From the NCBI GenBank assembly GCA_001724265.1, contig MEDY01000267.1, positions 1 to 42,369 on the forward strand: DNA of 42,369 bases, in the 5' to 3' direction. Source of the stretch: Rhizaria sp. SCN 62-66. Lineage: Eukaryota. Shown one piece after another: positions 1 to 36,785 of this stretch. Numbering within the stretch: the first letter of the stretch is position 1; each line of letters begins with the position of its first letter. The translations under genes were made by a program, and so were the position numbers. The notes under the pieces are model-generated. The model was given only the letters and a program-made list of their open reading frames with translations. It made no database searches and was not told the origin of the DNA.

Positions 1-334
1 GGTCGACCGCTCTGCTGCTTACGCTGCCCGCTGGGTCGCTAAGTCCCTCGTCGCTGCCAAGCTCTGCCGCCGCGTCCTCGTCCAGCTCTCGTACGCCATC
101 GGTGTCGCCGAGCCCATCTCCGTCCACGTCGACACCTACGGCTCCGTCGTTAAGGGCAAGACCGATGCCGACCTCCTCGCCATCGTCAACAAGAACTTCA
201 ACCTCCGCCCCGGCCGCATCATCAAGGACCTCCAGCTCCTCCGCCCCATCTACTCCAAGACTGCGTGCTACTCCCACTTCGGCCGCGCTGATGCCGACTT
301 CACCTGGGAGACTCCCAAGACCCTCGAGCTCTAA
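1..334 (+). CDS. MAT: S-adenosylmethionine synthetase (methionine adenosyltransferase), 3' part; gene starts upstream of the window
   Basis: The frame starting at base 2 reads [48 protein letters not shown]...[30 protein letters not shown]...[11 protein letters not shown], the MAT C-terminal domain. Stop TAA 332-334. Strong C-ending codon bias. The ORF track misses it because no start codon is in the window. Confidence 0.97.
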
Positions 335-1327
335 GTGCTATGCAGCAGTTGTCCACGCTGTGAATACACAGCAACAGCAGCCGCAGTGCATGAGTGCGTG
401 AGCGAGCAAATGTGCGAGTTAACTCTGATTGAATGAGTTGCTTACTCGTCTTGCTTGCATGCCTGTGAGAGTGAAAGTAAATTGTCTGGAGGTGATTTTA
501 TGACTCGACTCTTTGTGGCTTCGACTCTTTTCACAAAGGGAAAGTTATGGTAGAATTAGTGTTAACGGAGAATGCTTCGCGATCCTTTATTATAATATCT
601 CGTGCTTGTTTTCTTGCTATTAAGTTAAGTTGAGCTTATTTAAGGACTGATGTCTTCTCTGTTGGATTTTTATAATGTTATACACATGGTATGTTGACGA
701 ATCGAACAATGTCGCAATCCGTGTTAATACGACATGAATGTGTATGACTGTATGTGTAGTTCGTATTCTTTATTTTCTTGCTTCGTGATCTTGCTCTCGG
801 TGGCAAATGCACTCCACTCGTGTCTCAGTTGGTTGGATGGTTCCTGTCCACAGATGTGAAATAGATGTCATTGTCGGTGCATGGTGCGTTTATCAATAGA
901 ATCATGTTGTTACCATTGTTGTGAGACTCGTTGTTTAAGTGTTTTATTCTGACGGAGGATGAAAATATCCGCAAGCGACCGTGAGCACCGCATGCAAAAA
1001 TCTTCAAGTCGTCAAGCAGGAGTGAAGGAAACTGTTTTCGGAGATCTCATCTTGAATATCACAAGACATACAAGATATTATTTAACAAATGAAATTGATA
1101 TGTCCTTATTGAGTTTTACGTTTATTTTCATTGTGATACAACGGACTTAATTGTGTGTACAACCGGAGATTGTTCATCGCACACGCTTCCACTTGTACAA
1201 ACCTCGTTGCTCTGCCTCCCTCTTCAGCGCTGTATCATCGTCGCTCTGGCTCTAGCACTTCACGATTATCCTGCATCAACTTTGCGTGTCTCGTTTTCTG
1301 CATGAAGTGTGTCAAGACGGGCTCGTA

Positions 1328-4300
1328 ATGCGCTCTCGTGCCGTCGCCAAACCCGCCGCGGCGCCGCCTCCGCCGCCGCAGCACGGAAGAAACATATCTG
1401 CGGCGCCGTTCTCTGCTAGTGATGCTGCAGCGGAGTCTGCCACAACTGCTAGCGGTGCCTTGCTAAGCCGCGGCTCTGCATTTCGCCGCAGCTTGCGACT
1501 TGCATCAGTCGCTGCTGCCTCTGGCTCAGATGTCGCCGATCCGACCGATGCGATGAGTGTCGGTGAGACTTGCTATGTTGAGCCCGCCGCTGCTCGCGAT
1601 GCACCTGACGTTCTTGAAGATAAATCTGTCTTTGCTAGCACGCACACATTGTCTACCGCTGTCACCGCTGCATCAAGCGCAGGCGGAGCAAGTGGCGCTG
1701 CGTTATCCCCGTCCGAGTCCACGAAGATCTCGGTCCATCGCAATATCGACAACAACAACAGCGAGAACACCTCGAGCACGGGTGTTCATAGCGCAAACGC
1801 AGCTGCTACTGAAGGCAACAGCAGTGACAACATTGATGCTGACTCGTGCGTGGGGACGAACTCCAGCTCAGCCGAACAGCCGCAACAGCAGCAGCAGCAG
1901 CAGCAGCGGCCGTTGAGGCTGCAGCAGCATCTCAAACTACAACAGCAAGGTGAAATCGCTACTGACACCGCTACCGCTAGTTTTAGCTGCGAGAGCAAGA
2001 CACGCAGCGACCACGAGATGCGGTTGAGTGAGTTGCGCCAACAACGCGTTAACCATGGTGCTGCTGCGGAATTGCTTGTTCCTGTCACAGCCACAATCAC
2101 TGCGGTAAACGCTGTCGATTCAACTCTAAACAACACGGCTGGTAGTCATTCAGTTGGCGTTGATAACACAGGCGACGACGATTTCAATGACGGAGACTGT
2201 GAAGACAATGACGGCAACGACACAGGCAACGTCTATAGCGATGATGATGACTATGACTTTAGCAGCGTGTACGTGCCCGTGATTGCGCCAAATCAGCTGC
2301 CCATGGCGACACATGCGGAGCTTGTAAACCAAACACGTACACTCAGTGGCAGCGCGTCATCAGTTAGCAACATCAAGAATCGCAATGTTAGCGGCGAAGT
2401 CATTGTGTCGAAGAACACTGACAATAACCGTAGCCGCACAGCCGTAAGCACAACGCCCTAGTGCAAAGCGCACGCTGATGTCACGGTAACTCCACAGCAA
2501 CATGCGACTGTAAGCACAACTCCCAAAGAGACGACTATAAGTGTGACGCCACAGCGCGTCCGTGCAAGCCATCAACAGCAGCTGCAGCAGCACCAGCAGC
2601 CGGAGCACGCCGTGGTGAGCACAGTCACAGTGCGCACCCCGCCGCGCATGGGCATTGAAGCGTCTCCCAGGCCAGGCCATTCGCTGTGTCTGCGTTTCAC
2701 CGCTGCAGGACACTGCGTGTCGTCATCAACCTACACTATTCCTGCCGCTGCTGTGGGGCCGAGCGCAACCGTTGCAACAGCACCTGGATCTTCACAGGCG
2801 GCACCACCAGCGGCAGTCCCAACAAGTGCAGTCGCGCCAGCAGTGGACACCGCGTCTCGGCGCGCAACTGCCGGGTGCGTGCCCAGCTACACTAGCCGCG
2901 CCCCTTGTCCTGTTCCTGCACTTAGTCCAGTTGCTACCGCGAGAGCTGGGTTTAGTTTACATTCGCACGTGCGCAGTCACTTGACAACTGTCTCGGAGTC
3001 GGAGGTTCCATATGGCAGAGCAGATAACGTTAATGTTACAAGCACGGCCGTTGGGTTTAAGACCGGCACCGTTGCTACAAACGCTGTGCTGGCGTCAGGC
3101 GCGGTGAATAATGTAGCCGCATTAACAGCACCGCCAACGGCAGCAATGACAGCGACTAATGCGCATGTGTCTGTGCACGAAGCCGCGGCAACTACCATGA
3201 TCAAGTTGCCAACCGGTGTCGGTGGAAACATATTGCGCCAACCCCCGCAGCAGCAACAACAGCAACGCGAACAGTTTGTGTTGCTACGACAGCAGCATCG
3301 CCAACGGCAATGGCAACGGCTACAATAGCAGCAGCTGCTGCAGGAGGAGCAGCAACGACAGGAATGGTTGCTGGCTCAACAGCAGAGTTCGCACTCTCAG
3401 AGCGTTATGCGAGATTGCTCTTGTCAGGACAGATGTAACTGCGATGCTCCAGTCCAAACCAGTGATGCTCGCAACGCAAGTCAACCTGTGCGTGTCACTG
3501 ACTTTACTGAAGCGCACGAGCGCAAGGCTAGTGATGTAATTGCAATGAGCGATTTGTGCGATGATGGTCGAAATGGCACGACGTTGCGCTTGCATCTTGA
3601 TTGCGCTTATAAGGGCGCGCATATGCGTCTTCGTGCAAACAGCCGCGCTGGCTATGACGACCGCATGGATTATAGAGCTGCAAACGACAGTGAGTGGGTG
3701 GGGACCGATCATTGGGGGTTTCGACCCTTACCATCGTTGCTGCCTGTGCCGCCGGAGGTACCTGCAGTGACTTACGCACGCGCTTCCGATTTATCACGGC
3801 AAGACGCTGTTGTTGCAACGCTGCGCGCAAACGTAGATCACGACCATGCCGACGAGACGAAACGGTCTGGCAGCTCTGGCTATGACCGCAGTAACAACAG
3901 TCATACCATTGCGGAGTTTGCTCGTGAGTATGCTCGAGTTGTGACTGCAACACCAAATAACACACCGGCTGTGACTGTGCGCGGACTGTTGCTTTCTGGT
4001 TCTCACAACACTGAGACAACGCTGCAAAGTTGTGATGCACATGTTCTTCCTTCAAGCAACGCAAACACTCTGGAGGCTGCAACTGCAAAGTCGTGGAACA
4101 ACGCTGTAGGGCAGCGTGGGTAGCACTCTGAGCAGCAACCGTTGCGAGATTCCAAGCGTGAGCGAGAGCAAAATGAGTGGCTTGATCGCAGGCAGCGCCG
4201 CTGGTCGCAGCTTGTACACACTCAAGCAAGGATGCAGACTCATTCGCGGCCACAAGAACAAGTAAATTGCAATAGCGACAGTTTTGGCGTCGGTCAACGT

Positions 4301-6763
4301 CAAGACAGCTTAGAACGCAAACAATGTGACGCAGAAATCGTTCACACAACTCTTAGTAGCAGTCGAAACATTACTGACACAGAGCTGGCGCCAGCAACTA
4401 ATCAGCGTCAATCGCGTTATCAGGCGCAATCACAGCTAACAGCTGCGCTTCGTGCTGTCTCGCTCACTCCAACTCTTGCGCAACAGTCAATTTCGCCTAA
4501 CAATCGACGTGTTTTGCTGGCTGCAGCAAGCGCCCGTGGCCGCAGTGCAAGTACGCAACCCGCGCACGTAAACGCAGACTTTGTCACAAACATCTCACGT
4601 ATGCATCAACAGCAACGGCGGCAGCAGCAGCGACAATCACACGTACAATCATAGCCTCTTAAACAGACACGAGCTCAGGCACAAGCGCAGTTGCAGTCAC
4701 AACCTCGAGGGCGAGAACAGCGTCAGTCAGGACATCAACGCTTGTCTCAACTGCAACAGCTACAGCAACAACGGTTTGCGCCATTCGAGCTAGCGCCAAC
4801 CCCTGGTCTTTTGGCTTATCTCAACACACCAAGTAGCCGCGTGCCTTACATTGGGTCTCTGTTGACTGGCACGCGTAGCATTGCAGACAATAACCCCGGC
4901 GTTATGTTCACGCCGACTTTGACCGTACAGCCACAGTCATCGGCTCTTGCAACAGCTGCGGAGACGCCCACGGTCGCGAGTGCGCTTGGCTCACCAAGAG
5001 CGGAGTTTCGCACTCAGCAAAGTCCGTATTTGGGAGCTCAGTCGCAACCTCGTGTTCAAGCCTCTTTGCTCGCATCGCTCCCGTCCCCATCTCCTCCCCC
5101 CGCACTTGACCCGCAGCACCCTTCAGTGTCGCGCTCATTTGGCGCCACGCTTGCGGCCGGCCCCGCGCTTTGCGGCCGGCTGCATCTGCTGCCGGCACCG
5201 CCGCCAGGCATGCCCCCCGCGCGGGCACTGACACCGGCACCGCAAACTGGGTCTGTTGTTGCATTGATGCATTCACTGGCTCAGGCGCGCGCGCAGGCAA
5301 TGGCGCAGAGTTACACGGATGTCGCGCTGTGTGATATAGATGATGACGACGGGAATGATATATATGATGACCATTGCTATGAGCAAAGTCTTCATTCACA
5401 TAACAACTATGGCTGTGACAGCAATGAAAACAATGGTGATAACGAGTACGACGATGATGACAACACTCCTTCGACCGACAACAATGATTGTGAGTTCGCC
5501 ACCCAGAGCCACAGCGAAAGCGGTGATACCAACGCCTGCTATCAACATCAACCTGAGCAGCAGTACCGCAGAAGTCGTAGAGTTCAGTCACACGCATATT
5601 TGCAGTCGCAGTTGCAGGTACAGCAACCGCACTCACAGCGAAACTCTAATGCGAGCACAAACCCGTTTTCTTTTGCCTTTACGTCAAGTCATAGCGTCAG
5701 CAATAGCGTGCATGTAAGCAACAGCGAACAGACTGGCTATATTGGGGTAAACTACAGTCGTTACAGCTCCGTGCGTGATCGTGGCGACCGGGACCGTGGA
5801 CACCGTCTCTTCAGCACAAACCGCGAACAGAGCATTGTGCCTGCAACTGACCGCGAGCTCGGTGTACGTGAACGTGTCAGCAACTATGCGAGCGAGCGAT
5901 CTCAAAATGAGCGCGTTGCGGCTGACCGCGACCGATCATTTGCGTGCTCATGGCCAGGTTGTGACAAGCGCTTCAGTGAGCGCGCTAATCTAAAGCGCCA
6001 TTTGAAACAAATCCATCTTGGTGTTCGTGAGTTCTTGTGTCCTGTCAACGACTGTGGGCAGCGGTTCGGTCGCAAGTCGCACTTAGTGCATCACTTGTCC
6101 GGCAGCAGGCACGCGGCTGTGGTAGATATAGCCACGATCGTTGGTGAGCGCATGTGGAAAGCTGTGATCGAGCACTCGCGGCGGCGCGGGATGCGCGCGA
6201 ATAAACGCACAAACGCGAGCAGCAGTAGTGCCAGCGGTGTCGCGAGCGGCGGAGCAGGTGTGGGTGCAGTGAAACGCGGCCGTGGTCGCAGGACTGCAGG
6301 TGCTGTTGCTGGAGTTGCAGTGAACTCAACTGGCTCAAGTTCGTATAATAGTTTAAGTGCGAGCGCAAGTGTGGGTGTTGGCGTTGCGCAGCGGCAGGAG
6401 CAAGGCCAGCTGCTTGACTCAGAGTTTGAGTGTGAACAAGAGAACGACGACGCGGATACGAGTGACAACGACAGCGACTCTGGCAGCGACGGTGATGACG
6501 GCAACGCAAACGCGACACACAACGACGACGACGATTATGATGACGGCAATAGCGGCAGCGGCAGTGATGGTGATGGTGATGAGTCGCCGCTGCAACGGCG
6601 ACAGCGTCTGCAAGATCAGGATGAAGAGGAAGAAGAAGATGAGGAGGAAGAAGACGGTCGCAGCAGCGCCGCTGTGCCTACGTCTCGACAGCGGGTGATG
6701 GAGGCAAAAAGAAGCGTGGGCAGTAGGCCTAACAGAAGCAACAACAAGTGGATGCGTAAGTGA
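1328..6763 (+). CDS. Large intronless low-complexity (Q/S/A/D-rich) protein with two C-terminal C2H2 zinc fingers, probable transcription factor; 1811 aa if four in-frame TAG codons are read as Gln
   Basis: Track ORFs 1286-2461, 2543-3328, 3368-4123, 4142-4654 and 4691-6763 are all in one frame. They are separated only by single TAG codons (2459-2461, 3326-3328, 4121-4123, 4652-4654) with no other stops in the gaps. First ATG 1328, terminal TGA 6761-6763. Fingers at about 5939-6112: FACSWPGCDKRFSERANLKRHLKQIH-LGVRE-FLCPVNDCGQRFGRKSHLVHHLSGSRH. Basic NLS-like patches and an acidic tail follow. Confidence 0.8.
2459..2461 (+). other. In-frame TAG, predicted Gln
   Basis: Context STTP-TAG. The downstream repeat units read VTPQ, STTPK and VTPQ. 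Confidence 0.7.
3326..3328 (+). other. In-frame TAG, predicted Gln
   Basis: Context CGG CTA CAA TAG CAG CAG CTG CTG CAG (RLQ*QQLLQ) in a Gln-rich helix. Confidence 0.75.
4121..4123 (+). other. In-frame TAG, predicted Gln
   Basis: Context GQRG*HSEQQP; the frame continues without a break. Confidence 0.65.
4652..4654 (+). other. In-frame TAG, predicted Gln
   Basis: CAA TCA TAG CCT (QS*P) parallels CAG TCA CAA CCT (QSQP, 4694-4705) and CAG TCG CAA CCT (QSQP, from 5039). Confidence 0.75.
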
Positions 6764-7166
6764 TGTAGTTTAGATCACAGCAATGTTGTGATTTTGTGTT
6801 TTCCTGGCAGCTTTAAGACTTTTATGCACTTGAAATCCTATGAATTGCGTTACTGTAGATTACTTTAATCATATAGGAACCAGTACTACCACAAATAAAG
6901 ACTAATATTGACTTATGAATACGGAATAACCTTAATCGACTTAGAAACACCTTCACAACGCATAGCCAAGGTGTAAGATGTACAATTGCAGTGTATTTAT
7001 TCTGTGAATCATGAGCAAATTAAAAGTACACGGCATGTTCACGCGTCTGTATACGTGCAACAAGCATGAATATGTGCACTGAAATGAAGTTTGGCCATAT
7101 CATAAGCTTTTATGCCACCCTTTTTCCCACTCGCATTCCTGGCGACAACAGCAACAGCAATAGCAC

Positions 7167-8679
7167 TCAGAGCTCATCCTTGTACTTGGGCGCAGCGGCC
7201 GCGGCGTCAACACGGGTCTTGAGCGCCGCGTCCTCGCCGGCCAGCGCGGTGCGCTCCTCGAGCATCTCCGCCATCGCGGCGGCCTGTAGAGAATTGATTG
7301 AATACGTTTGCAATGAGTGAAAGGTATCGTTGAATAGATAGATGAGAGATTGCTTCGTATGAGCAATGCAGACATCAACCGGTACACAGGTCATGTTATA
7401 CAAGCTATGATTGAAGGTAGAGTGAAGTATATAGAGATAAAGATGCGATTTAGAGATTGACGCACCTGGAACATGTCGAGACTGGCCTGCTCCTGCTCGG
7501 GGTTGAGTCCGCTAACAACGGTGCCGGCGCCCGCGGCAGTGCCCTCAGTCTGGTCCTCAACCGTAGTGAGGTACGTCACCAGGTACGCGCGGAGGTCGGT
7601 CCACACGCCCGCAGTGTCCTGCAGCAAGCGAGGCAAGGCAACAGCAAAAGATATTGTAAAACAAAGGGTTGATAAGTGAAGATGATCATAGCATATCATG
7701 ACGTCGGATGATCAACGAAAGACAACAAATATAAAGTATAACTGTGAGGGGTCTACATGAAAATTCGCTTAAACCAGAAACTATTGAGGTATTGATCGCT
7801 TGACGGATGACCGCTTGACGTACGATAGCGGTGGCGGTGCCAACTTCCTCAAGGCCGTCGACATAGCGCGAGAGAGCGTGGTCAGTCTTGTGAACAAACT
7901 CAAGCAAGGGAATGTGACTATATACAGCACGTGGATACAAAACAATCCGCAATATCAACAAAAATGTTTGTGCGCGGCCGTGTAAAACCAAGAATGTGAG
8001 TCAACGATTCAAGTTGAGATAGTACATTAAACCTCCAAAATCACAAAAACAATAAAATGACAAAAATGCATATTGATATATCTATATCGACGCAGATGCT
8101 TCACGTAGATGCAATATATGCCGTCATATCTTCGGAAACGTACGGGCGGCACGAGTACTCGTTAAGAGCGTGCGAAACGGAGTAACCAAGCAGCTGCGCA
8201 CCCTTGACAAGGGTCTCATCCTTGTCCACAACAAGCGCGCGGAACGGCAGCGCGTCAATCATCTGGCCCATAACCTTGACCAGCCCAGGGCACGCTTCGG
8301 ACGCACGCAGCTTGCCGCTCGCGGCGTTATCGCTCGCGCTGGCGTCGAACTCCTCGTCGTGCTCGACGAGCCCCAGCAGCGAGGAGACCTCCTCCGCAGC
8401 CGCGTAGAGCTTCTCGCCCAGCGCGCGCGTCTTGGCTGCGGCCTCCTCGGCCAGAGTAGCTGGGTACGGGGCCGCGGCGCGCGCGGCAGCGGGGAGCGCC
8501 TCGTATTGCACAAGCAGCTTAGTCAGCTCGTTCTTGGCGCGAGGAATGCTCTTGCTGGACGCCTTAGCCAGGGCTTGCAGCTTCGTGTCAAAGGCGGGGT
8601 TGGCAGCAGACGCAGCGGACACAAACGCCGCAGCAAAAACAGCGGCGATCAGAAGCAGGAACGCGGGAGCGAAACGCAT
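7167..8679 (-). CDS. Uncharacterised ER-luminal protein (N-terminal signal peptide, C-terminal KDEL), about 299 aa, 4 exons
   Basis: Exons 8679-8144, 7917-7824, 7618-7466 and 7283-7167 join in frame (donors GTACGT, GTACGT, GTGCGT; acceptors TAG, CAG, CAG). Starts MRFAPAFLLLIAAVFAAAFVSAASA and ends ...PKYKDEL-TGA. Confidence 0.85.
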
Positions 8680-9803
8680 CGTGAACGAGGGAAATGCTGC
8701 TTTTAGACAGTGAGTCGTGGTCAAGGACAGGAGCAAAATATGGACGTTAGCGGTGATTTTCGCCACTAATAAAAGATAAGCTTGTAGACACTCACTCGTG
8801 ACAGTAAATTTTAGCAAAATATCCTGGATTAGCGTTAGAAATGTCATTAAAATCTAGTTGCAAGAAAGGCGTCAGCAATCGGGGCGAGCTCACCACAAAA
8901 CCGGCCGACTGGCGAATCTTGCCGTTCGCAAAAAGTCGTAACTCGTGTGTGATTTTCTGTCCGCCGAGCGACCCCAAGATGACCCCCGCAGACTTTGATG
9001 GCATTTGCCAAGATAGAGCTGGCAGTCAACACTCCGATACGCATCATATAATTTCCACATGCAATAGATATGTGTCCAATTTGTCGCCTTGAGAGAGTTC
9101 GCACGATGTGTCACTCACGTGGCCTCAGTCCGAATGGGACCAACGAGTCCCTGTCTTTGCACAATCCGAGTCATGTTGTCAGTGTTGACGAGTTAGTCTC
9201 GTAATATCAAAACAATACGACAACTTCAAAACAATTCGCTCACTTTTGCGTCGCCGATCATGAAGCTTGCGAAGGCGCTTAAGTACGACTCGCGTAAGCG
9301 GCGCGCTGTTAACTGATGATGCGTTGCAATTGTGGCAATGTTTCTATGACGGAGTTCTAAAGCTTAGTTCAATAAGGCGGCAATGAGCTCATGTTGCGGT
9401 AAGTACTGTACTACAGACGGTGACGTTTGATGTGCATCACCTAAGTTATTTCTCATGCACATCATTCCACGAGGCATACGTATTAAGTCACGATGAACGA
9501 AAGTAAACAACTTGAAAGAATTGAGATGTCTTGGTGTATGCGCAACAAAGAAAGTCGGGCCACTTGACCCGCTGTGTCATTTCAATCTTGTGTTTGAATC
9601 AATCACTCAATACACAATGGTTGTACAGGCACAACAAAAGACAAAAACATCACCAAAATAAAAAACAAAGCTAGTATAGCAAACTGGTCCATTCTAAAAT
9701 AGTTATGGCCCGACCTCGGCCCGATATTACACCACAACCACGGACGTACGTACGTCTAACTGAGTCATGTCGTGTTGCGGCATGTTTTTCTGTGTCGGTG
9801 TGT

Positions 9804-11809
9804 TCAAATGCGCGAGTTCCAGTCCGTGGCCTTACGTCCGTGCCCGGTCTCGGTGGCGGCGACCACGCGCGAGGCCCCCGCAAGCCTGGCGCGGCCCTGC
9901 TCGAGACGCACGAACTCGCGGTACTGGGCCTCGGCCACGGCCGCGGCCTCTTCCTCCTGCTTGATGCGCGACTGCTCCATCGCGCGCACGTTCGCGCGCT
10001 GCCGCATCTGCGTCTCCAGGTCCAGCCGTGCCTGCAGCGCCACGGCGGCGCGCGCGGCGTCCTCTGCGCGCTCCAGCTCCTTCTCGCGCTGCGCCGCGAG
10101 GTTCATCGCCGCGCGCGTCTCCGTGTCGCCCTGGTGCGCGTCGCGGCGCGCCTGCTCGTTGGCCGCGATGCGCGCGCGCTGCGCCGCGGTCGCGTCGTCC
10201 TGCAGCGCCTGGCGGGCGGCCGCATCGCGCGCCCATTCGCTGTCCTGGCGCGCGTTCGTCTGATCCTAAGATGGTGATAGGGATGATGTGAGAATGCAAC
10301 AAAAGAAGGGCATTGTGAGCATGTACGAAGTCTAGAAACAAAACAAAAAACACATCAAACCACCCAAATAACACAAAAAAAGATATTTCCAACATAATTT
10401 GCGCAAATAAGTGCGAATATATCGAGAAATGGCGTTCCAACACACCTGGTAGTCGCGTGTGACGCGGTCGAGCTCCTCCTCCTGCCTGCGCTCCTCTGCC
10501 TTGCGCAGGGTGAGATACTCGCGGTACGCAGCCATCTCGCGCTGCATGGCCACCTGGTCCATGCGCTTGCGCTGCAGCTCGGCGTGGTAGTCGGCCAAGT
10601 GGCGCTCGAGCTCCTCCTTGTCGGCCTCCTGCTGACGGCGCTTGGCCTCACGCTTCTGGGCTAGCCACTGCTCATTCCACTCCGACACGGCGCGGCCCTG
10701 CGCCTGCTTGCGCTGCTGCAGCTCGCGCTTCGCCTGCTCCGCGGCCGCCGTCTCGGCCTGCACGCGAGCGAGCCAGTCAGCGCGCTCGGCCGCCTTGTCG
10801 TCCAACACAGCCTAAAGAGCATAAAGAAAGAAATACCGTCGTTATAGTGGAGACAAATAATAAGATATATGAGTCAATTTAAGACGACATGTGTAAAAAT
10901 ATGAGTTTTACATTATATTTGAGTCTTAATGTCCATGAGCAAGACGAGCGAGTTGTAGAAGCATTATTGTGAAAGTAATGAAGCAAAGTGCTAGAGATAC
11001 GGACCTGGCGCTGGTCTGCGCGCTCCTGCATCTGCTTCGCAATGGCGTCGCGCATCTCGACCGCGGCCACCGCGCGGCGCGAAGCGTCCTCCTGCTCGCG
11101 CTGCAGCTTGCGGCGCTTGTCCTCCTCCCACACATCGAGCCAGCGGGCCTCCTCGGCGCGCTCCTCCTGGGAGAGCACACTGCGCTGCTGGCGCTGCTTG
11201 TCCTGCTCGGCCTTGGTGAAGCGCGCGTACGCCTCCGAGTCAAGCGTGCGCAGGTCGTCGCAGCCGGCGCGCCACATGCGCATGTACTGCTCCTGCGCGA
11301 ACTGGCGGCGGCGGTCGTCGCGGTCGGCCTTGTTCTGGCGCGCCAGCGCGAGTGTGCGCTGCAGGCGGTCCACGGTGGTGTCTTGCGATGAGGAGATCTC
11401 GCGGCTATAGAGGTGCACACAACGCATGATCAAACAAAGACGTAAAAGAGATTATGGAAGTGTTGTTTGATGCAATGGTCAAGTTATGCGTCAGTATGGT
11501 AAGGAATAGTGAAGAAATGCCGCTGTAATTGGGTAGGCTGGGCACGTACCGGTACTGCTCCTCCTCGAGGAGCAAGAGCTCAGCAAGCTTCTGCCTGCGG
11601 GCGTCGAGCTGCTTCTGCGCGTCCTGCTCGAGGTTTTTTGCAATGTTGGCGATCTGCACCTGCTCCATCTTGATCGTTGACTTGGCCTGCCAGTCGGAAA
11701 TGTAGCTGCGGCGGAAGTCGCTCTGCTGGGTGGCGTTCATGGCCATCTGCGTCGCGTCGGCCTGCCGGCGCCGCTCAATCGCGGGGTTCTCACCGCCACG
11801 GCGCGGCAT
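9804..11809 (-). CDS. CFAP53: Cilia- and flagella-associated protein 53 (CCDC11, trichoplein-like coiled coil), about 495 aa, 4 exons
   Basis: Exons 11809-11550, 11404-11005, 10811-10446 and 10265-9804 join in frame. Motifs LDARRQKLAELLLLEEEQY, RRQFAQEQYMRMWRAGCDDLRTLDS, WEEDKRRKLQRE and YREYLTLRKAEERRQEEELDR plus the C-terminal GHGRKATDW resemble CFAP53. Stop TGA. Confidence 0.82.
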
Positions 11810-12362
11810 CGTGTCTACGTAGAGGGGTGAGCAGAAAGGAAAGAGTCGGAAACAACAATGAGGAAGGCGCATGGAGGACGGGGAAAGTTAGCCAGAGTAA
11901 GGCAGTTTGGTCATGTTTGAGTGAAGGGAAAGGCAACCTGATACCAGGGCTGGTGAGGTATATCTGAGCTACAGTATGAAGAACAAATAGGAAATAGACG
12001 TGATATATAGCACATTGAGTGCTAAGTCCATATGATGGTCTTTATGGGAGATACGAAGCGTTGAGTTTCAGTGTAACGGTTTCTGCAACTGACGCCCAAA
12101 CGATTTTTTCGGTCCCCAGTCAAGCCCACTCTCTATTCTATATAATCTCAAAGAAAACATTATTTATGAGCCCACTGAATCTAATATTTGGTACAAACAA
12201 ATATAGTATATGTATTTGTGTTGTGAATCACTTTTAATGGCACAATAGGCCATATTGGCATATATAATTGCGCTTCTAGACTGTTACTCGTATCATCACG
12301 AGCACTGATTTGCACATTGCATCTTGGATTCCGCGAATACTTCGCAGCACGTCAACACGTAC

Positions 12363-15162
12363 TCACTGTGGCAGAGACGGGTACTCAGCGGCCAGCACGG
12401 CCCAGAGACAGAAGACGTTCTCGGGATACTTGTGGAGCTTCACGCGGAACGCAAAGCGCGCGTCAGGGTGTCGCACGCGCAACAAATCAACCACGGCCTG
12501 CTTTTTCAGCAAAGCCGCCACAATGCGGCGTGCGTCGGCAAACGTAAACTGGAACGGAATAGCAACAAACGTGCACTCAGGAGACGTCATGTTCTCAATT
12601 GCCTGTGAAGTATAAGAGATTAAGGTTGAGGTGTTCGAGTGAGCAACTTGAAAACATCCGTGGATGCTCTGCGAGTATAACAAAACATTTGGAATATTGC
12701 AATAGCACAATATATCAACAGATAAACGTCTCGCAAAACTTGACTTCGACGGGAGGAATGTTAGTCAAACAAAATGACAATAAAGAGCAATTCATAATAA
12801 CCGTTGCTTGATTCAAATCCTCGTGCAAAAGCGTACCTGCTTCGTGAGCTCCTGCCCCAGGTCTGCGCGGCCGCCCGAGCCCAACAGCGGCTCCATCTCG
12901 TAGGCCCACAGCAGCGGCTGCAGCACGCGGCCCAGCGCTGGGCAGAAGCGCGTCGTCAGCCCGTCGACGTGCGCCGCGCGGACCGCGCTCAGCATGTCCT
13001 TGACCTGCGCCTCCACGTGGTGTGCCTCCGTCGACGCGGAGATAGAGCTGAATAGACGGCGCAAATACGGTAGCGCACATAAAAACGAATCAAAGATGAA
13101 GATATAAGGAGACAACATGTGAAAATGAAAAAGTGAGCGAATGGGGACTTAAAGCAATGTTAAACACACAATCAAGAGCTTCAGTAATATAAAATAGTCA
13201 ACAAAACACATTGAGGGTAAAAATCAAAAAATACGTCTGTTTTTAATTACGCATATCCTTTGTTTGCGAGGGTATCTGAACATACCTCTTCTGCAAGTGA
13301 AGCGGAAGCACCGGTCCCGTGGCGTTGATCGCCTCCTTGGGGAATGCCAGCCAGCCGCCGTCGGCGCCGCACACCAACCCCGCGTCGCCCGGCGTCGCCG
13401 CCGCCGCCGCCGCACCGGCGCCGTCGTCACCCTGCTGCTGCTGTGCATTTAAGTTAGGCCGCGTTGCAAAGTCAAACGAGAGCTCGTGCGGCAGCTTGTT
13501 CGGGAACAAACACGCGTAGTACGCGTCGTGGCGGAACAGCGCCGACACTGCGGTGAAGGGCAGTGGCAGCGGGGAGCCGCGGCGGCAGGGGTACGTGCGG
13601 CCGGTGACGGCGTCCCAGAAGGTCGCCGCGCCGCCCCCCGGGGTGACAGTGACCACCCACGCGTAGCTACCGGGCACCCCCGCCCCCGCCTCCCTACTAT
13701 GCGCCGCGTCGCCGCCCGCGCCGCCGCCGTTGGCGGGCGCAAGCGTGGCGGTGCCCGTAGCAACGTACGCGTCGAGCCCGAAGCCCAGCAGCAGCGAGCA
13801 GAGCAGCAACGCGTGCTCCACCGCGGCCCCGGCCCCCGCGGCCAGCAGCGCCGGCACGGACCGCCAGCCGCGCGCGCGCTCGCCGGCGGGCCCGGCGCCC
13901 GGCTCGGCGAACGGCAGCAGCCGCACAAAGCGCGCGGCGTGCAGCGCCGTCTCGAGCCCGCCCGCGGCGGCCCCGGCACCCGCGTCTGCGGAGTAGGCGG
14001 GGCGCACGAAGGAGCACGCGAGCCGCAGCGTGCCGTGCTCGTCGCGCGCGTACAGCTGCGGCGCGGGCGCGCGCGGCGGCGGCGGCAGGCGGCGCTCGAG
14101 GCGCAGCCACCATGCGCGCGCGAAGACCTGTTGCTGCGTGTGGCGGTCCGCCTCGGCGCGCTGGTCGCTCGCGATGCGCCGCGCGACCACCGCCGGCGAC
14201 ACGAACACCGGCGGAACGGCAGCCGCTGGGTTCCCCCCGGCATTGTTGTTGCTGTTCTGTGCTGTGGCGTCGAGTGAGAGCGGCGCGAGGGCGAGGCGCA
14301 GCGGCACGAGCCCGAGGATGAGGTCAGAGGCGTCGGCGGTCAGAACGAGGTCATGGTCGAGGCGGCCGTGGACGAGTGCGGGCCGCCAGTCGCAGCGGGC
14401 CGAGGCCAGCAGAGTGGCCGGGCCGCCGTCGGGCGGGTGGCGCAGGAGCAAAAACTGTAGGGGCTCGGTCACGGCCAGGTAGGACTCGAGCTTGGAGCTG
14501 GACCCGCTGGACCCGCTATACCTGCTAGAACCACTAGAACCACTGCTACTGGCCGCGGTTGCGTCTTTGTGGGGCAGGGGCGTGTAGACCGCGCTCATGT
14601 CGGGCAGCGGAAACGTGGTCTGCGCTGCGAACGCGGGCTCGGCCGTGAAGACCACGCGCGGCGTCGCAAAGCGGCGCGAGAGGAAGCACACGACGAGCGA
14701 GAGCAGGGGAGGCGTGGCGGACGCGCACTCGCTGTCTAAGAGCGCGTCGGCAAACGAGCGACCGGGACCAATGGTGACGGTAAGGTAGAGGGACTTGGGG
14801 TCCATCAGCAGGGGGCGCGCGCTGGGGACAGGGAAACGGGCGCTGGGCAGCGGCTGCGGTTGAGGCTGAGGCTGCTGCTGCTGCTGCTGCTTTTGCTGTT
14901 GCAGCTGCGACGACTGCCTTGCGCTGGAGCTGGTTTGGGTCTGCTGTTGTTGCTGCATCAGTTGCTGGGGCTCAAGGGGAAATGATTCTGTCACGGGGCC
15001 GAGCGCGGAAGACGAAGAGAGGACTGCAGAGGCGGAGAGGTCCTGGAGGAAGTGGGAATTGTTCTGCTGCGTCTGCTGCTGTTGCTGCTGTTGATCCTGA
15101 TGCTGCTGATCGCCGTAGCCGCCGCCGACTGTTTGAGTGCGGGGGGAGTGAGGCGAGTACAT
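12363..15162 (-). CDS. CEP76: Centrosomal protein CEP76-like (C2 domain plus transglutaminase-like domain), about 775 aa, 3 exons
   Basis: Exons 15162-13286, 13047-12837 and 12602-12363. Motifs LACSFVRP, HAARFVRLLPF, EHALLLCSLLLGFGLDAYVATG, AWVVT...FWDAVTGRTY and the C-terminal FAFRVKLHKYPENVFCLWAVLA match CEP76. Gln-rich N-terminal extension. Stop TGA. Confidence 0.9.
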
Positions 15163-24980: not shown

Positions 24981-26190
24981 TCACTTCGCAGCCCCTTGTT
25001 GCTTTGAGACCCCGCCGGTGAGCGCAGCGCGCGCCTCGCCGGCCAGCTCCCGCCGCAGGTCGTCGAGCCCCGTGGCGATGACCTTGACGCGGGCTGCCGC
25101 GCGGCCCGCAGCCTCAGCGGCCTGTGCGCGCTTTAAGTTAAGCCGCTCTGTCTGGGCCGCGCAGTGGGCAATGCCCTCGGGGACGGTGAACTGGGCCCAG
25201 AAGCCCAGGCCGATCTCGATCGTGATCTGTGCAGGGGCAGCGATGAGCACACAATTAGTCGCAAACGAGCGACAGCGTACAAGATAGCGAAAATCAAGAC
25301 AATGAGAGAACAAATGGAGTGAGACACTAATATCTATCTTTAAATTAACGTTGAAAACGCATATATCTCAATATGTGTTGCTAAGTCGTCGTCGGAAACT
25401 CGTGGCATATGATTATAGCAACATAAGATAAGAGCAGCTGACGTACGAGACGGGGGTCGGGGACGACCGCGTCGACGAAGAAGCCGTTACCGAGGTCAAC
25501 CATAGTCTCCAGCGGACGCGGCAACGCTGGAACACCCTCAGCACCCGCACGCGCAGACTGGGAGGCGGTGTGAGCCCCGCTGTTGGCGCTATGAGTGTTG
25601 GTGTGGTCTGGGTTAGTGAGCGCGAGGGTGGAGAGTGTGCGGAGCAGCTCCTCCCAGTGACCCAGCTCGGCCGTCACGGCCGCCAGCGCGGCGGAAGTGG
25701 CCGCCACGGCGGGCTGCAGTGAGCGCGAAAGCAGCTCTTCCAGGCGAGATAGCTGCTGCGCGCGCTGAGCCAGAGAAGCAGTCGCAGAAGCAGCAGTCGA
25801 AGCAGCGGTCGCAGGCGTCGCAGACTTCGTTGTCGCTGTCGTATTCACAGCCGCAGTAGCAGGTTTAGCAGCGATAGCAGCCGCGGCAGTAGTAGCGCTC
25901 GCATGGCGAGGAGTCGGGACAACAGGGGTTGAGGCAGACGCAGCGGAGGCAGACGCGGGGTTTGCTTTAGTAGGGGTCTGCGGCTTCGAAGGAGATGCAG
26001 TCGTCATGGCAGGCTTTACACTGGAAGCGGGAGTCTTGCTCGAGTCAGTCTGGCGAGGGGCATTAACCGCGGTAGCAGCAGAAGTTGGGGAGCGCTGTGG
26101 TGGCCGCTGGGGACCCTGGTAGCGCGCAGGCTTGATGCCCGCGGAGGCTGCGGCGTCGTCGAGACTGGACGAGGCGGATGTGAAGTCCAT
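24981..26190 (-). CDS. UXT: UXT-like alpha-type prefoldin subunit with a long Ala/Thr/Ser/Pro-rich N-terminal extension, about 329 aa, 2 exons
   Basis: Exons 26190-25447 and 25226-24981 (donor GTACGT). The joined core LETMVDLGNGFFVDAVVPDPRL/ITIEIGLGFWAQFTVPEGIAH...VKVIATGLDDLR matches the UXT beta-hairpin signature. Stop TGA. Confidence 0.85.
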
Positions 26191-27934
26191 CGAGATTAAA
26201 GCGATAGAACGCAACTGCAAGAGATACTAAAAGCAGAACGAAAAGGATGCTTACGATTCTTTTTGTTCGTTGACTTATAGAGCGCTTGTCGATGCTTGTG
26301 CCGAGATTTCACTCTTTTCCGAAAGCATCATGTCGACTTCTCCGCAAGAGACTCTACAAACTGGCCATCCGCTGCCAGTGGTTGTGGTGCGCTGTGACGG
26401 TTACAGCGAGGTAACAACTTGAATATGATGATGGAGGTTATACATATGAATTTTGTGATATATTGTATTAATGGACTGTTGTGGTTTATAACTGTACAGT
26501 TAAACTTAAACAAGCCGAACCTGCTGTTATATCTCTTGTGTTAGAAAACTGACTGTCACTTAAAAGTTGCATGAATCAACTCTACTAAAAACATCTGGCA
26601 ACTATAGCAAGCAGGGGAAAAAGCAGTGGGATAGGCATAAGCTGACATGTTCTGAACAAATCAAATCGCATTTGTATGAAATACATCGAAATTATTCAAG
26701 TAACGTTTTCGAAAATGGGGTTTCCTTGTGACTACTGTCACTAAAGCACAACCTAGAGCGTACGCATGCCCAGCTAGAGCCCGTGGCTACTTAACTTCGA
26801 ACACCAGAGAGGGTCACTGGTTCTTTCGCCACGGAGACTAATGGTTTGAAAAAAGTTCTCACTTTTGTTATCAATGCAATGCAATATTCAGAACAAATTG
26901 TACCAGTACTGTACGTTGGGTCGTGAACTGTGATGCTTCTTGGTTAATTCTTGTTTCGTTGTTGTCACGGTGACAATTTTTATTAACGGGAGTACTATTA
27001 AACTATCAATATGCCACACACATGCATAATTATACAACTTTCATCCTCTTTGTTATGTTGCGTTGTTTTGTTGCGAGTAATCACTCTAAGTGCGATACAA
27101 AGCAGTAACGCAAAATGCATGATAACCCAACATTAGAAACCGTATTCACTTAAAACAAAGTGTACTCTAATCACTAGTGCACTTCAATAAAGAAAACTCC
27201 CAGTCCGAGACATAAAAAAAAGGAAGAAGGGTAGAAATTTAACGTAAAGCTGGCGCAAAGAATAGCAGCAATTGGGACGTCGGCGAAGATGATGATGATG
27301 AAAATGACATGATGTGAAATGTTGACGACAAAAAGGAACGGGGCAACGAATATGTTGACAAAGTTGACAAAATATTAGGCCGAATCAGAACAAGCAGCAA
27401 TCAAATGACAAAAAAGCAACATGAAAAGAAAATCACATGAAGACAACAAAAAAGGGCGATGTGGTCATGGTATGATGCGATGCGCGTGCATACAGTGGGA
27501 CAGAGATGCTGTCCCAGTAACTGACAAAGTGGGCGCTGGTGATCATCGTATTAGTAAACTACAGCACGAGTGAGTGCACTGCAAAACAAAGAGTATGAAG
27601 GCTGAGTATTTGTTCAGTCAACAATCGCGTTTAAATTATACCGTTTGATTAAAAACAAAACAAACCGCAAGCAATCAAAAATGGAACACGAGCAACGCAC
27701 ATCAGATATAATAAAAACAATACCACACTGCCCAACAGGTAAGTAAAAACACAAACAACAGCAACACGACTCGCTGACGCGACACAAGCAAGACCTCCAC
27801 AGTCATCTTACAAAGGTCATCCTTAGTGGTTTACGGAACTTCCAATGTCACACGACGCACTCGCGCTTCTCAAGCCGGTGCAGCGGCAAACGAGCCGCGT
27901 GACCATAGTGCATTGCCTTAGCGCGCATGTGCGC

Positions 27935-29972: not shown

Positions 29973-32900
29973 TCACTGGTGCGGCCCCCGCGGCAGCTGC
30001 TGCTGCTGTTGTTGATAGTGTTGCTGCTGCTGGTACTGCTGCTGCGGCCTGTTGCCACCGCCCCCGAACTGCTGCGGGCCCTGGCCCTGAGGGTAGTTGT
30101 ATCCATGTTGCTGATGTTGGTGCTGGTTCTGCTGAGACCCTTGGTGCGCGTAGCCGTGCTGCTGGTACCCGCGCTGCTGCCCCACAAACTGCTGATACTG
30201 CTGATGTTGCTACTGGTACTGCTGCTGCGGGTACTGCTGCTGCTGCTGCTGCTGTTGCTGCTGTTGCGAGCCGGGCACCGCCTGCATGGCGCGGCCCTTG
30301 CGCGCGCCCTTGAGCTGCTCCGCCGTCGGCGCGGGCAGCCCCAGCAGCTCGTGGTGCGTCTTGAGAGGGCCCAGCTCGCCCGACTGCGACAGCTGCTCGA
30401 TGGCGCTCTTAAGCGCGGGCATAAACAACTGAGGGGGGAAATAGGTTCAAAGCAAGAGATCAAAGGAAAAAAGATCGCACAGTGTTAGCGATAAAAGCTC
30501 ATTGAAAATAAAAGATTGGTAGGTTCATACAAAACAATGAGAGACAATATTATGATGAAATCACATGTGAAAGAAAGTGAACGCGAAATATGACATGACA
30601 GCAAACGTACCGAAGCGTGGACCCTGGCGACGGCGGCCAGCTGCGCCTTGTTCATGCGCAGCATGACGTCCACGGCCGCGGCCGCCGTCGCCGCCGCGGC
30701 CGCAGCGCCCGCGGGCGTGTCGGCGGCGGAGCTGGTGCTGGGGGACTTGACGAGCGCGAGCAGCAGGTCGGAGAGGTACTGCACCTGGCACGCCTCGGCC
30801 AGCGCGCCGCGCCGGGACAGCGCCTGCGACACCACGCTCAGCGCCAGCCCCGCCGTCACGCCGCCGTTCGCGGCGCTGAGCGAGAGGCTCGTCGCGTTCG
30901 GCAGCGCGCTGGCGCCGCCCGCCGCCGCGGCCGCAGCGGACGCGTCGGCAGCCGCGCGAGCGGCGTTGTTGTCGGGCGCGTTGAGCGCGAGGTTCGTGAG
31001 CAGGAACAGCGCCGGCGGGGCGGGCTGCGCGCGCGCCATCGCGAGCAGCACGGCGGGCAGCCCGGTGACGGCGACGCGGCCGCTGCTGACGACGAGCGTG
31101 CGCAGCTTGTCGGCCACGAGCGCGGGCGCGGCAGCGGCGACGGGCAGCGCCGCGAGCAGCTCCGTCACCTCGAGCGCCGACACGCGCGGCGGTGTGATTG
31201 TGTCGAGCACGCGCGCGAGGGCCAGCTCCCACACGCGGCCCGCGAGCGCCAGCAGCGCGGGGAGCTGCTCCGCGAGCTCCTGCTTGGAGAATGTCGGCAG
31301 CAGCGGCAGCAGGTAGCGCACCTCAGTGCCGCCCGAGCGCGCCAGCAGCGCGCGCGCCGTGCGCTGGAAGGGCGCCGACTGCAGCGTGGCCAACACAGCC
31401 TCGCGCGCCTTGGCCAGCGCCGCCGTCTGCGCCTGCAGCCCGGCCTCGGGCGTCGCGGCGGCCGCGTTGGCGGCCTCGGCAGCGGCAATGTCCTGCGCAG
31501 ACACCTGCGTGAGCTGGTCCAGCAGCTGCAGCACGGCCGGCTGCGCCGCGGGCGGGCTCTGCTCCAGCGCCAGCAGCAGGTCCGCGCTCGCCGCCACGGG
31601 CTCCACGCGCAGCATGGTGTGGATCGCGTCGCGCACCCACTGGTGCGGCGTCACGGCGTACGCGCGCAGCAGCAGCGCCACAGCCGCGGGCGCCGCGCGT
31701 GCCGCCGCGAAGCCCAGCCGCAGCACGCGCGCCGCCTCGGACTCGCGCGCGCGCCGCAGCGCGTCGACCGAGTCCAGGAACGCCTCGGCGCGGCGTGCAA
31801 GCCGCAGCTGCGCGCCCAGGTCGCCGGCGGCGAGCAGGGCCGCGTCGGCCTTGTCCTCCTCGTCCTCGGGCTCGTCGCCGTCCTTCGCCTCGGCATCCGG
31901 CGCGCTCGCATGCACGCTAGATGTGGTCAGGTCGAGGGCGGCGACGATGTCGGCCACGGAGCGCGAGCCGCCGGAACTGCTGCTGCCGCTGCTCGACGAG
32001 CCGTCGTTCAGGAGCACGGTGCCCGAGGCAGCATCGCCCGCGGTCGAGGCCAAGCTGACGCCGAGAACACCTGTCTGGCCGCCCTGCTGCCTGCGCAGCG
32101 AGGCCACGCGCGAGCGCAGCTCGCCCGCAACGGCGCGCGAGGGCCGCGGCAGCGCGCCGCAGCCGCGAGGGAAGAGCGGGTCCGCAAGCGCGGCGAGGCG
32201 CGCGGCGACGAAGGCCAGCGCGCGCGGGCGCACTGCGCGCAGGGCCAGGACGTCGCGCAGCAGCGCAAGCGCGCGCTGGGCCTGGTCGTGTTGGCGGGAG
32301 AGGCACTGCGCGAGCACGAGCAGCAGCGCGGGAGCGCGGGCTGCGGGGCGACGCGCGATGAGCGTGTGCAGCGCGACGAAGCCGACCTCGCAAGCGGGCG
32401 AAGGCGAGGCCCACAGAGCGGCGAGGTACGCCATGACGCTGTGCGTGATCACGGGCGCGCCAGTGAGCACCGCACGCAGGGCGGGCTGGTCGAAGCCTGC
32501 GGACGGGAGCCCGCCGGCTCTGACCGCTGAGGCGGAAGTCAGGTTGGCGTCGCCAGTGGAAGTTAAGCCGCGGATGAGGGTGAGCAAGTGAGAGTCGTAC
32601 ATCGGCAGCAGAGACGAACAAGACGTCACAGCATTCGCACTCGAGCTCGGACTCGTCGCACTGTCCGTCATCGCGTTCAAATCACGCGCGTCACTGGCGT
32701 TACTGGCGTTGATGTGGTGGCAGAGCGAGAGCGCGCGCCAGTGCGCCTCGACAACGTTCACGGGGGGCGCGGCCACGCGCGCGGGCGCGGCTGCCGCGGC
32801 GTCAGCTTCGGTCATGATCGCGGCCGACGCCGCCGCGCCCGCGGCCGCAGCGGCGTCGGCGGTCGCGCCCTGCTTGAGCGCGACAGCGCTGGCGCCGGAC

Positions 32901-35900: not shown

Positions 35901-36785
35901 TGGCGACGCGGCGGCCGCGGCGGCCGCGGCGGCTTCCGCGCGCGCGCGGACGCGGGCCTCGGGGGGGAACTCGCCGTCGAACTCGTGGGTGACGCTGTCG
36001 TCCGCCTCGCGGCTGTTATCGTCCGTCATCGCAGCAGAGCCCGTGGTGGGAGAGAATCCCTGCCCGCGGTCGCTGCGGTCGGAGCGCGAGGCGAAGAAGA
36101 GCCTGCGCGCGCGGCGCGCGCGGCGGAGCCTCGCGGCGGCGGCGGCGGAGCCGGAAAGCTGCGCGACGGCGCACAGCGCGGGCCGCAACAGGTGCACCGC
36201 GGTGCGGAGCACGCGCCGCACGAGCAGCGAGTCGCCCGCGTCCGAGACTAGGAAGGCCGCCAGCGCGGGGAACACCACGGGCAGCAGGCGCGCGCCGTGC
36301 CGCGGGTCCACGGCGGCGCGCTCGAAGAAGAGCACCAGCGCCGTCCGGACGAGGCTGTCGCCGGCTGCGAATAATGTGCCTGCGGCGCCAGCGGCTCCAG
36401 CGGCGAAGTCTGCGCCCGCGGACTTGTCCTGCGCAACGGGGTTAAAGAGCGGCGAGGTGGTCGGCGAGGCGAGGTAGGCGAGCGCGTCGACGGCGTCAGG
36501 CGCGGTGGGCAACAGCACGTACATCTGCTGGATTGCCACGAGCTGGTGCGCCTGCGTCGGCGCCGCCAACAGCGTCTCGATGAGGCCAGAAAGCGTCGAT
36601 GGAACCATAGCGGCCGCAGACGATGACGCGGAGGCAGCGTCTGCGCCGCCCGCGGCGGCGGAGGCGGCGCCAGAGGCGGCCGCGCGACGGGGATCCACGC
36701 TAACACCACTGGCGCCAGGAGCTGAGGCGCCGGCGGCCGCGGCAGCGCGCGCGCGGGGATCCGCGGGGTTGCGGCGCGGGTCCAT
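29973..36785 (-). CDS. SYMPK: Symplekin/Pta1-like 3'-end processing scaffold, expanded with Ala-rich insertions and a Q/Y/G-rich tail; about 2038 aa, 5 exons, one in-frame TAG
   Basis: Exons 36785-35364, 35184-34852, 34669-33569, 33415-30611 and 30428-29973 join in phase 0. Symplekin-like motifs: ALKLLEMAVLAL, ALLWLHTLY, GFVALHTLIARRP, EVRYLLPLLPTFSKQELAEQLPALLAL, MLRMNKAQLAAV. The last exon has TAG at 30212-30210 inside a poly-Q tract and ends TGA at 29975-29973. Confidence 0.75.
30210..30212 (-). other. In-frame TAG in the symplekin tail, predicted Gln
   Basis: The minus-strand 18-mer CCGCAGCAGCAGTACCAG occurs twice (30230-30213 and 30047-30030). TAG follows the first copy and CAG follows the second. 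Confidence 0.78.

Follow-up and report, generated by a model that had tools for sequence, protein, structure and literature searches.

The window analysed here, contig MEDY01000267.1 (Rhizaria sp. SCN 62-66; 42,369 nucleotides (nt)), carries a long reading frame on the forward strand (1328–6763) that encodes a pair of zinc fingers and is interrupted by TAG codons only. The frame comprises 1,811 codons, with no TAA, no internal TGA and four TAG, and is closed by a TGA (6761–6763), past which the GC content falls from 0.54 to 0.33 over the next 150 nt. In the list of open reading frames (ORFs) made with translation table 11 it is broken up into five ORFs of the same frame (1286–2461, 2543–3328, 3368–4123, 4142–4654 and 4691–6763, all on the + strand), which on a stop-to-stop reading adjoin directly, with one TAG between each pair. 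The initial annotation, made from the sequence alone, had suggested that these five ORFs form a single gene split by TAG alone, and TAGs at 2459, 3326, 4121 and 4652 are indeed all that separates them. If TAG is read through, the coding sequence would extend over 1328–6763 (+), with 1,811 codons followed by the TGA.

The first in-frame TAG (2459–2461, codon 378) stands in the context CCC TAG TGC. The second (3326–3328, codon 667; CAA TAG CAG CAG) lies within a run of CAR codons, where it is aligned opposite CAG in the repeat family D1. The contexts of the third (4121–4123, codon 932) and fourth (4652–4654, codon 1109) are GGG TAG CAC and TCA TAG CCT, respectively. The frame is preceded by an upstream ORF of eight codons (1302–1328, +; read from the sequence), the TAA of which overlaps the main ATG as TAATG. 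This layout (1302–1330, with an ATG at 1302) resembles that of termination-reinitiation.

An open frame of 1,811 codons is not a chance occurrence, given that the lowest same-strand off-frame density of TAA plus TGA, taken as the chance baseline, amounts to 40 per 1,811 codons. The other five frames of 1328–6763 contain 8–25 TAA, 9–29 TAG and 22–81 TGA each. Base composition by codon position is periodic in all five segments and in one register (chi-square 29–97, p from 5e-5 to 1e-18), while five of six intergenic controls gave p>0.39 and the sixth p=0.017. The codons CAA (59) and CGA (20) are both common in the gene, and in line with the initial annotation none of the CAA-to-TAA or CGA-to-TGA lesions expected of a decaying gene is present in frame, nor is there any frameshift. 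Hypermutation from C to T, as in repeat-induced point mutation (RIP), was considered as a source of the TAGs and rejected, with 59 CAA and no TAA remaining.

The two C2H2 zinc fingers were identified by Pfam, by comparison with the PDB and by a motif scan, each with a complete set of ligands (5945–6112, +; residues 1540–1563 and 1571–1595). Their coordinates, 5945–6016 and 6038–6112, agree with the region near 5940–6110 predicted earlier, and place them 3' of all four TAGs. The Pfam family zf-C2H2 (PF00096) scores 32.9 bits on the C-terminal piece of 702 residues, against a cut-off of 25.2, and 18.4 bits, under the cut-off, on the whole read-through protein of 1,811 residues, in which the Pfam scan detected no domain besides the C2H2 fingers. 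PDB matches of the fingers include the DNA-binding proteins ZNF410, TFIIIA, WT1, GLI and YY1 (E from 7e-16 to 4e-14), with which they share a tandem arrangement and the pattern C-X4-C-X12-H-X4/5-H. Unlike those proteins, the present one has only two fingers, preceded by about 1,500 low-complexity residues; the remainder of the protein is rich in A, S, R and Q. The product is presumably a mostly disordered DNA-binding regulator with a C-terminal C2H2 pair. With the 702-residue C-terminal piece as query and target lengths limited to 386–1,229 residues, 5.8 billion proteins yielded no orthologue, the only matches being the window's own protein and a zinc-finger stretch of animal ZXDC (42% identical). 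The protein collection lists the last piece of the gene as a separate protein of 640 residues. A metagenome scan for orthologues returned only an identical contig (L001) and an unrelated multi-finger protein (L002).

The TAG codons in independent assemblies and RNA-like data

The TAGs are genuine sequence and not assembly errors, because they are unchanged in three other runs from three studies (X2, X4 and X5) and in an identical JGI contig. An X2 contig (1919–5729) and an X4 contig (1919–5558) show no differences from the window, with TAGs intact, and JGI contig L001 is identical to 1441–5530, all four TAGs included. In X5, single-nucleotide polymorphisms (SNPs) within the gene occur at 1452, 1738, 1811, 1857 and 4671, none of them on a TAG.

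Run X5 deserves separate mention, as its library is recorded as RNA-Seq/cDNA and is labelled 'RNA? (probably DNA)' by the tool. Four X5 contigs (1229–2791, 2762–3601, 3748–5057 and 5065–6797) cover the zinc-finger gene in a block from 1229 to 6797 (+), the likely extent of the mRNA. Depth is 8–24 over this gene, 47 at the end of the upstream gene, which we take to encode S-adenosylmethionine synthetase from its C-terminus at the window start, and zero in the bins 7338–8004, 8672–9338, 12007–12673 and 14008–14674, while X2 and X4, unlike X5, cover all bins. We have taken X5 as RNA because its patchy cover looks gene-shaped, against the full cover of X2 and X4. A polyA RNA run (X7) adds contigs at 2627–2885 and 5064–5499. 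Zero cover in X5 or X7 elsewhere in the window was not counted as silence. RNA-type cover with the TAGs retained, which had been named as a check of the single-gene proposal, was found in the four unspliced X5 contigs that together span 1229–6797, from a library whose label is ambiguous.

Among the contigs of four runs no credible splice joint could be identified within the gene, the joins listed having sides of only 20–26 nt in repeats; at this contig level minor isoforms or low-level editing may escape. Likewise, no GTRNGT..YAG interval of 40–400 nt with a length divisible by three spans the first, second or fourth TAG, and the third is spanned by weak GTGAGT/GTGGGT candidate introns only. 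GTNCGT, the donor motif named in the initial annotation, does occur ten times in the gene.

Codon bias, gene ends and a second gene with an in-frame TAG

In 11 confident or conserved genes or exons of the window TAG is absent from all 4,993 codons. These genes differ markedly from the zinc-finger gene in codon bias: the GC content of third codon positions (GC3) is 0.83–0.92 in the seven of them that were measured, against 0.43–0.68 per stretch of 100 codons in the zinc-finger gene. A similar dip, to 0.40–0.57, is seen in the low-complexity N-terminal part of a prefoldin-like gene (25381–26226, −). With a GC3 of about 0.4–0.6 in low-complexity coding sequence and 0.83–0.92 in structured genes, the bias tracks protein constraint rather than region. 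The same shift can be seen in the leucine codons, as TTG and CTG number 32 and 27 in the zinc-finger gene and 29 and 226 in the biased genes. When the TAG/CAG ratio of the zinc-finger gene (4/84) is scaled by this shift, about one TAG is predicted across the biased genes, so that finding none there is expected. The lack of TAG in conserved genes was therefore dropped as an argument against a genome-wide reassignment.

A fifth in-frame TAG was found at 30210–30212 (−), in the last exon (29973–30428, −) of a gene of 1,013 codons. This exon, which follows an intron at 30429–30610 (GTACGT...CAG), encodes a Q/Y-rich tail, and reads ...QQQYPQQQYQ-TAG-QHQQYQQFVGQQRGY...PRGPHQ-TGA. The TAG is followed by 78 codons, which keep the same Q/Y-rich composition, and then by TGA (29973–29975). 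GC3 is 0.91 upstream of the TAG and 0.78 downstream, and the GC content drops only past the TGA, from 0.64 to 0.35, the sequence directly after it being AT-rich.

Sixteen gene ends could be modelled in the window, a small sample drawn by us from ORFs and GC3; 11 of them are TGA, five TAA and none TAG. The GC content drops by at least 0.12 in the 150 nt past the stop at all 16 ends, while at the five in-frame TAGs it changes by +0.07 to −0.10. The base following the stop at these ends is G in nine cases, A in four, T in two and C in one, and that following the five TAGs is T, C, C, C and C, so that C comes next at four of the five TAGs but, among the 16 true stops, at one only (Fisher p=0.004). 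The absence of TAG terminators is weak evidence when taken alone, since Guttulinopsis vulgaris, the code of which is described as most likely standard, also rarely ends its genes in UAG, nearly all of its transcripts being reported to end in UAA (PMC5304391).

Placement of the host organism

The gene content of the window is eukaryotic, and includes a G-alpha subunit, CEP76, ABCE1 and an alpha/beta hydrolase. Its introns begin with GTACGT or GTGTGT and end in YAG, measure about 180–250 nt, and are AT-rich and non-periodic. Contigs containing DNA of the window, which has a GC content of 57%, come from bioreactor, wastewater and activated-sludge runs of several studies.

The best matches of ABCE1 come from across the eukaryotes and are 67–75% identical. 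A tree was made of 29 rows, consisting of the window and 28 of the 120 listed matches (19 named ones and nine unnamed top matches), in which a clade with 100/100 support unites the window with G. vulgaris and the unnamed proteins P0004 and P0005, and the window does not group with the sole ciliate. The same four sequences have nine derived columns in common in an alignment of 27 rows (P0008 and P0011 excluded; other rows invariant bar one), against 0–1 for four chosen control quartets and none for 20 of 20 random quartets. On this one protein, the host likely groups with the Sainouroidea (Cercozoa). The placement is of importance because Guttulinopsis belongs to the Sainouroidea, the group which also includes the exLh lineage with its altered nuclear code, according to PMC5304391. 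Sainouroids (Rosculus, Guttulinopsis) are known from wastewater plants (PMC8827150). Rosculus vilicus, presented as the only sainouroid with a described genome, was considered as the host and ruled out, its GC content being 37.7% (PMC10770858) against 57% in the window.

Comparison of the G-alpha subunit yielded no named close relative, and GTDB genome contigs scanned with G-alpha and with an exact 50-nt stretch of ABCE1 gave no match. The window contains no tRNA gene, no Rfam match and no rRNA gene, and a gene for eRF1 is not among its genes. Relatives among unnamed proteins were seen for G-alpha, 80% identical on a JGI contig of 9.7 kb (P0127) and 66% identical on an NCBI contig of 132 kb (P0131), and for ABCE1, 73% identical on a contig of 36.5 kb (P0005).

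Some further features of the window may be mentioned here. No inverted repeats flanking the zinc-finger gene were found, nor any sign of a mobile insertion. The two neighbouring genes, one at 2–334 (+) that resembles the C-terminus of S-adenosylmethionine synthetase and one at 7167–7511 (−), downstream of the zinc-finger gene, that ends in KDEL, share the same end (GAGCTC-stop-GTGCTAT), with no longer inverted repeat. An X2 contig at 10609–11115 has 16 differences from the window, and ten X2 differences at 10584–10689 are spaced by multiples of three, i.e. fall on third positions of a coiled-coil gene; this diverged stretch looks like a strain or paralogue under purifying selection. Finally, the region 30000–36000 reaches 70% GC, against 44–64% elsewhere in the window, and contains genes rich in alanine, in which several frames of both strands are open.

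TAG as a candidate sense codon

We propose that TAG is a rare sense codon in this organism, encoding either glutamine or leucine, and regard this as the probable explanation of the interrupted frame. The five ORFs would then make up a single gene, its product being about 1,811 residues long, in an uncultured wastewater and bioreactor eukaryote in which TAG is no terminator, or an inefficient one. Ribosomes would decode TAG as an amino acid, with termination left to TAA or TGA. As a non-preferred codon, TAG would build up in weakly biased, low-complexity regions (GC3 near 0.5) alone, and strongly biased conserved genes (GC3 0.83–0.92) would stay free of it. The single gene, the reality of its TAGs and their retention in apparently unspliced RNA stand; that the TAGs are translated, perhaps as efficiently as the initial annotation proposed, and that the change holds genome-wide, we infer.

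As to that amino acid, glutamine fits the position of two of the five TAGs inside CAG/CAA runs, a position that would equally follow if these TAGs had merely arisen from CAG. Leucine fits by analogy with exLh, the rhizarian precedent from the same group. A more specific version, in which the wastewater protist would be a second, independent or earlier-stage case of reassignment among the Sainouroidea, with TAG already lost as a terminator, UAG read as glutamine, unlike leucine in exLh, and TAG surviving in weakly biased, low-complexity genes only, is put forward tentatively and seems rather unlikely. If true, it would mean that a nuclear stop-codon reassignment has been caught near its start, and that UAG has acquired two meanings in one small clade.

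Several observations weigh against a sense TAG. None of the five TAGs is at a conserved position, all being in low-complexity sequence, and there is no TAG in the conserved genes, unlike in exLh, where there are many. In the zinc-finger gene the five strain SNPs affect codon positions 2, 3, 1, 2 and 2, without a sign of purifying selection, and the gene is without an orthologue in the collections searched. The CAG-rich tail of the second gene is open in other frames too, which makes it a weak case when taken alone, and under the standard code this gene would simply be one TAG-terminated gene among 16. Some of the modelled ends themselves are unsure: a TGA at 12363 stands directly before GTACGT, and two ORFs are possibly one gene. 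The scarcity of TAG stops may, by analogy with G. vulgaris, be ancestral in the Sainouroidea. Lastly, the tool regards X5 as probably DNA, and the placement of the host is that of a single protein.

Under the standard code, the TAGs could be stops in weak contexts that undergo leaky or programmed readthrough, near-cognate tRNAs reading some of them, giving little full-length protein besides truncated forms, an explanation which we consider unlikely. Termination in eukaryotes is leakiest when the stop is followed by C, and the excess of C behind the TAGs (four of five, against one of 16 true stops) favours this explanation, as does the lack of TAG in conserved genes; yet C begins 28% of all codons of the zinc-finger gene anyway. 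Hardly any full-length product would survive four readthroughs in a row, while the fingers downstream are intact and the three middle segments are periodic and devoid of TAA and TGA. The readthrough motif CAR-YYA is absent, the contexts being CAG CAG at the second TAG and CAA CAT at the fifth, so that programmed readthrough would here involve four stops in series ahead of the sole recognisable domain without its motif. Moreover, TAG is used at none of the modelled gene ends. A similarly low probability is assigned to young nonsense alleles under the standard code, in which case the zinc-finger gene would be a recent pseudogene, or would matter for no more than its first 377 residues, and the second gene would have lost a dispensable Q-rich tail by a CAG-to-TAG change. 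With 84 codons, CAG is the commonest one-step stop precursor in the gene, and the second TAG lies opposite CAG in its repeat family. The strain SNPs, four of five being non-synonymous by position, a GC3 of about 0.5, far from the norm of 0.83–0.92, and the failure to find orthologues also speak for this reading. The low GC3, however, recurs in the low-complexity part of the otherwise normal gene at 25381–26226. Counted by codon, single changes to a stop in the zinc-finger gene would create TAG in 250 cases, TAA in 174 and TGA in 124. The probability that four out of four nonsense changes yield TAG is thus 0.043 (0.055 under a fourfold transition bias), and for five out of five it is about 0.02–0.03. 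Furthermore, stop-creating changes make up 548 of 16,299, so that four of them imply about 120 substitutions. So large a number should have brought some frameshifting indels with it, but the frame is without any and still periodic, hence decay fits poorly. A strain with differences elsewhere in the gene has the TAGs as well, and RNA-like contigs extend over the whole gene.

A further alternative, to which we give very little credence, is that the TAGs are spliced out or edited in the RNA, or that a transcript of its own, starting after 4654, encodes the finger part. Genes of the window do have introns (GTACGT/GTGTGT..YAG), TAG is an acceptor-like triplet, and minor isoforms could exist. But the only joints within the gene in the four runs are the spurious ones with sides of 20–26 nt, no interval of suitable length lies over the first, second or fourth TAG, and the surroundings of the TAGs are coding-like, in contrast to the AT-rich, non-periodic real introns. 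The X5 contigs keep the TAGs unchanged, and a separate transcript would leave the open middle segments unexplained. That the TAGs are an artefact of assembly or sequencing has next to no probability: no support for it was found, and their identity in the runs of three other studies and in JGI contig L001 refutes it.

TAG as a sense codon, the reading that we favour, can be compared with known codes. In exLh (Sainouroidea) UAG encodes leucine, in what PMC5304391 describes as the one departure from the standard nuclear code known in Rhizaria; the same account counts 384 in-frame UAG across 71 genes, each at a leucine-like position, with stops that are UAA (56) or UGA (15) only, and with UAG scarcer in highly expressed and ribosomal-protein genes. 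As in exLh, frames here are interrupted by TAG alone, genes end in TAA or TGA and TAG is rarer under strong bias, and by the ABCE1 tree with Guttulinopsis both belong to the same part of Rhizaria. The two differ in frequency, with about five UAG per conserved gene in exLh against none in 4,993 conserved codons and five in two low-complexity regions here, in habitat (an insect, against wastewater and bioreactors), and in that two TAG contexts here look glutamine-like. In Iotanema spirale (Fornicata), UAG is reported to encode glutamine at conserved glutamine positions of many genes, with UAA and UGA as stops (PMC5304391). There too only UAG is reassigned, and glutamine would suit the second and fifth TAG, although the lineage is unrelated. 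Reassignment of UAG alone has also been described in phyllopharyngean ciliates (PMC11687900), and an oligohymenophorean ciliate is reported to read UAA as lysine and UAG as glutamate (PMC10553269). Those ciliates resemble the present case in that UAG is read differently from UAA; they are set apart from it by the 57% GC of the stretch, its spliceosomal introns of about 180–250 nt, and its G-alpha gene and ABCE1.

By these accounts, UAG-only nuclear reassignments are few, namely exLh, Iotanema and some ciliates (PMC5304391, PMC11687900, PMC10553269). The extent of the UAG change in Sainouroidea is described by Panek et al. 2017 as an unanswered question for lack of data (PMC5304391), and a literature search on sainouroid codes found no newer primary study. 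If right, the present interpretation would point to a UAG-only reassignment in or near the exLh clade, distinguished by a very rare TAG that is confined to weakly biased genes. It would add a free-living, GC-rich relative, and the rare-TAG pattern would inform how stop codons are captured. It would also have a practical side, in that standard gene callers fragment such genes, as exemplified by the last piece of the zinc-finger gene, which is catalogued alone.

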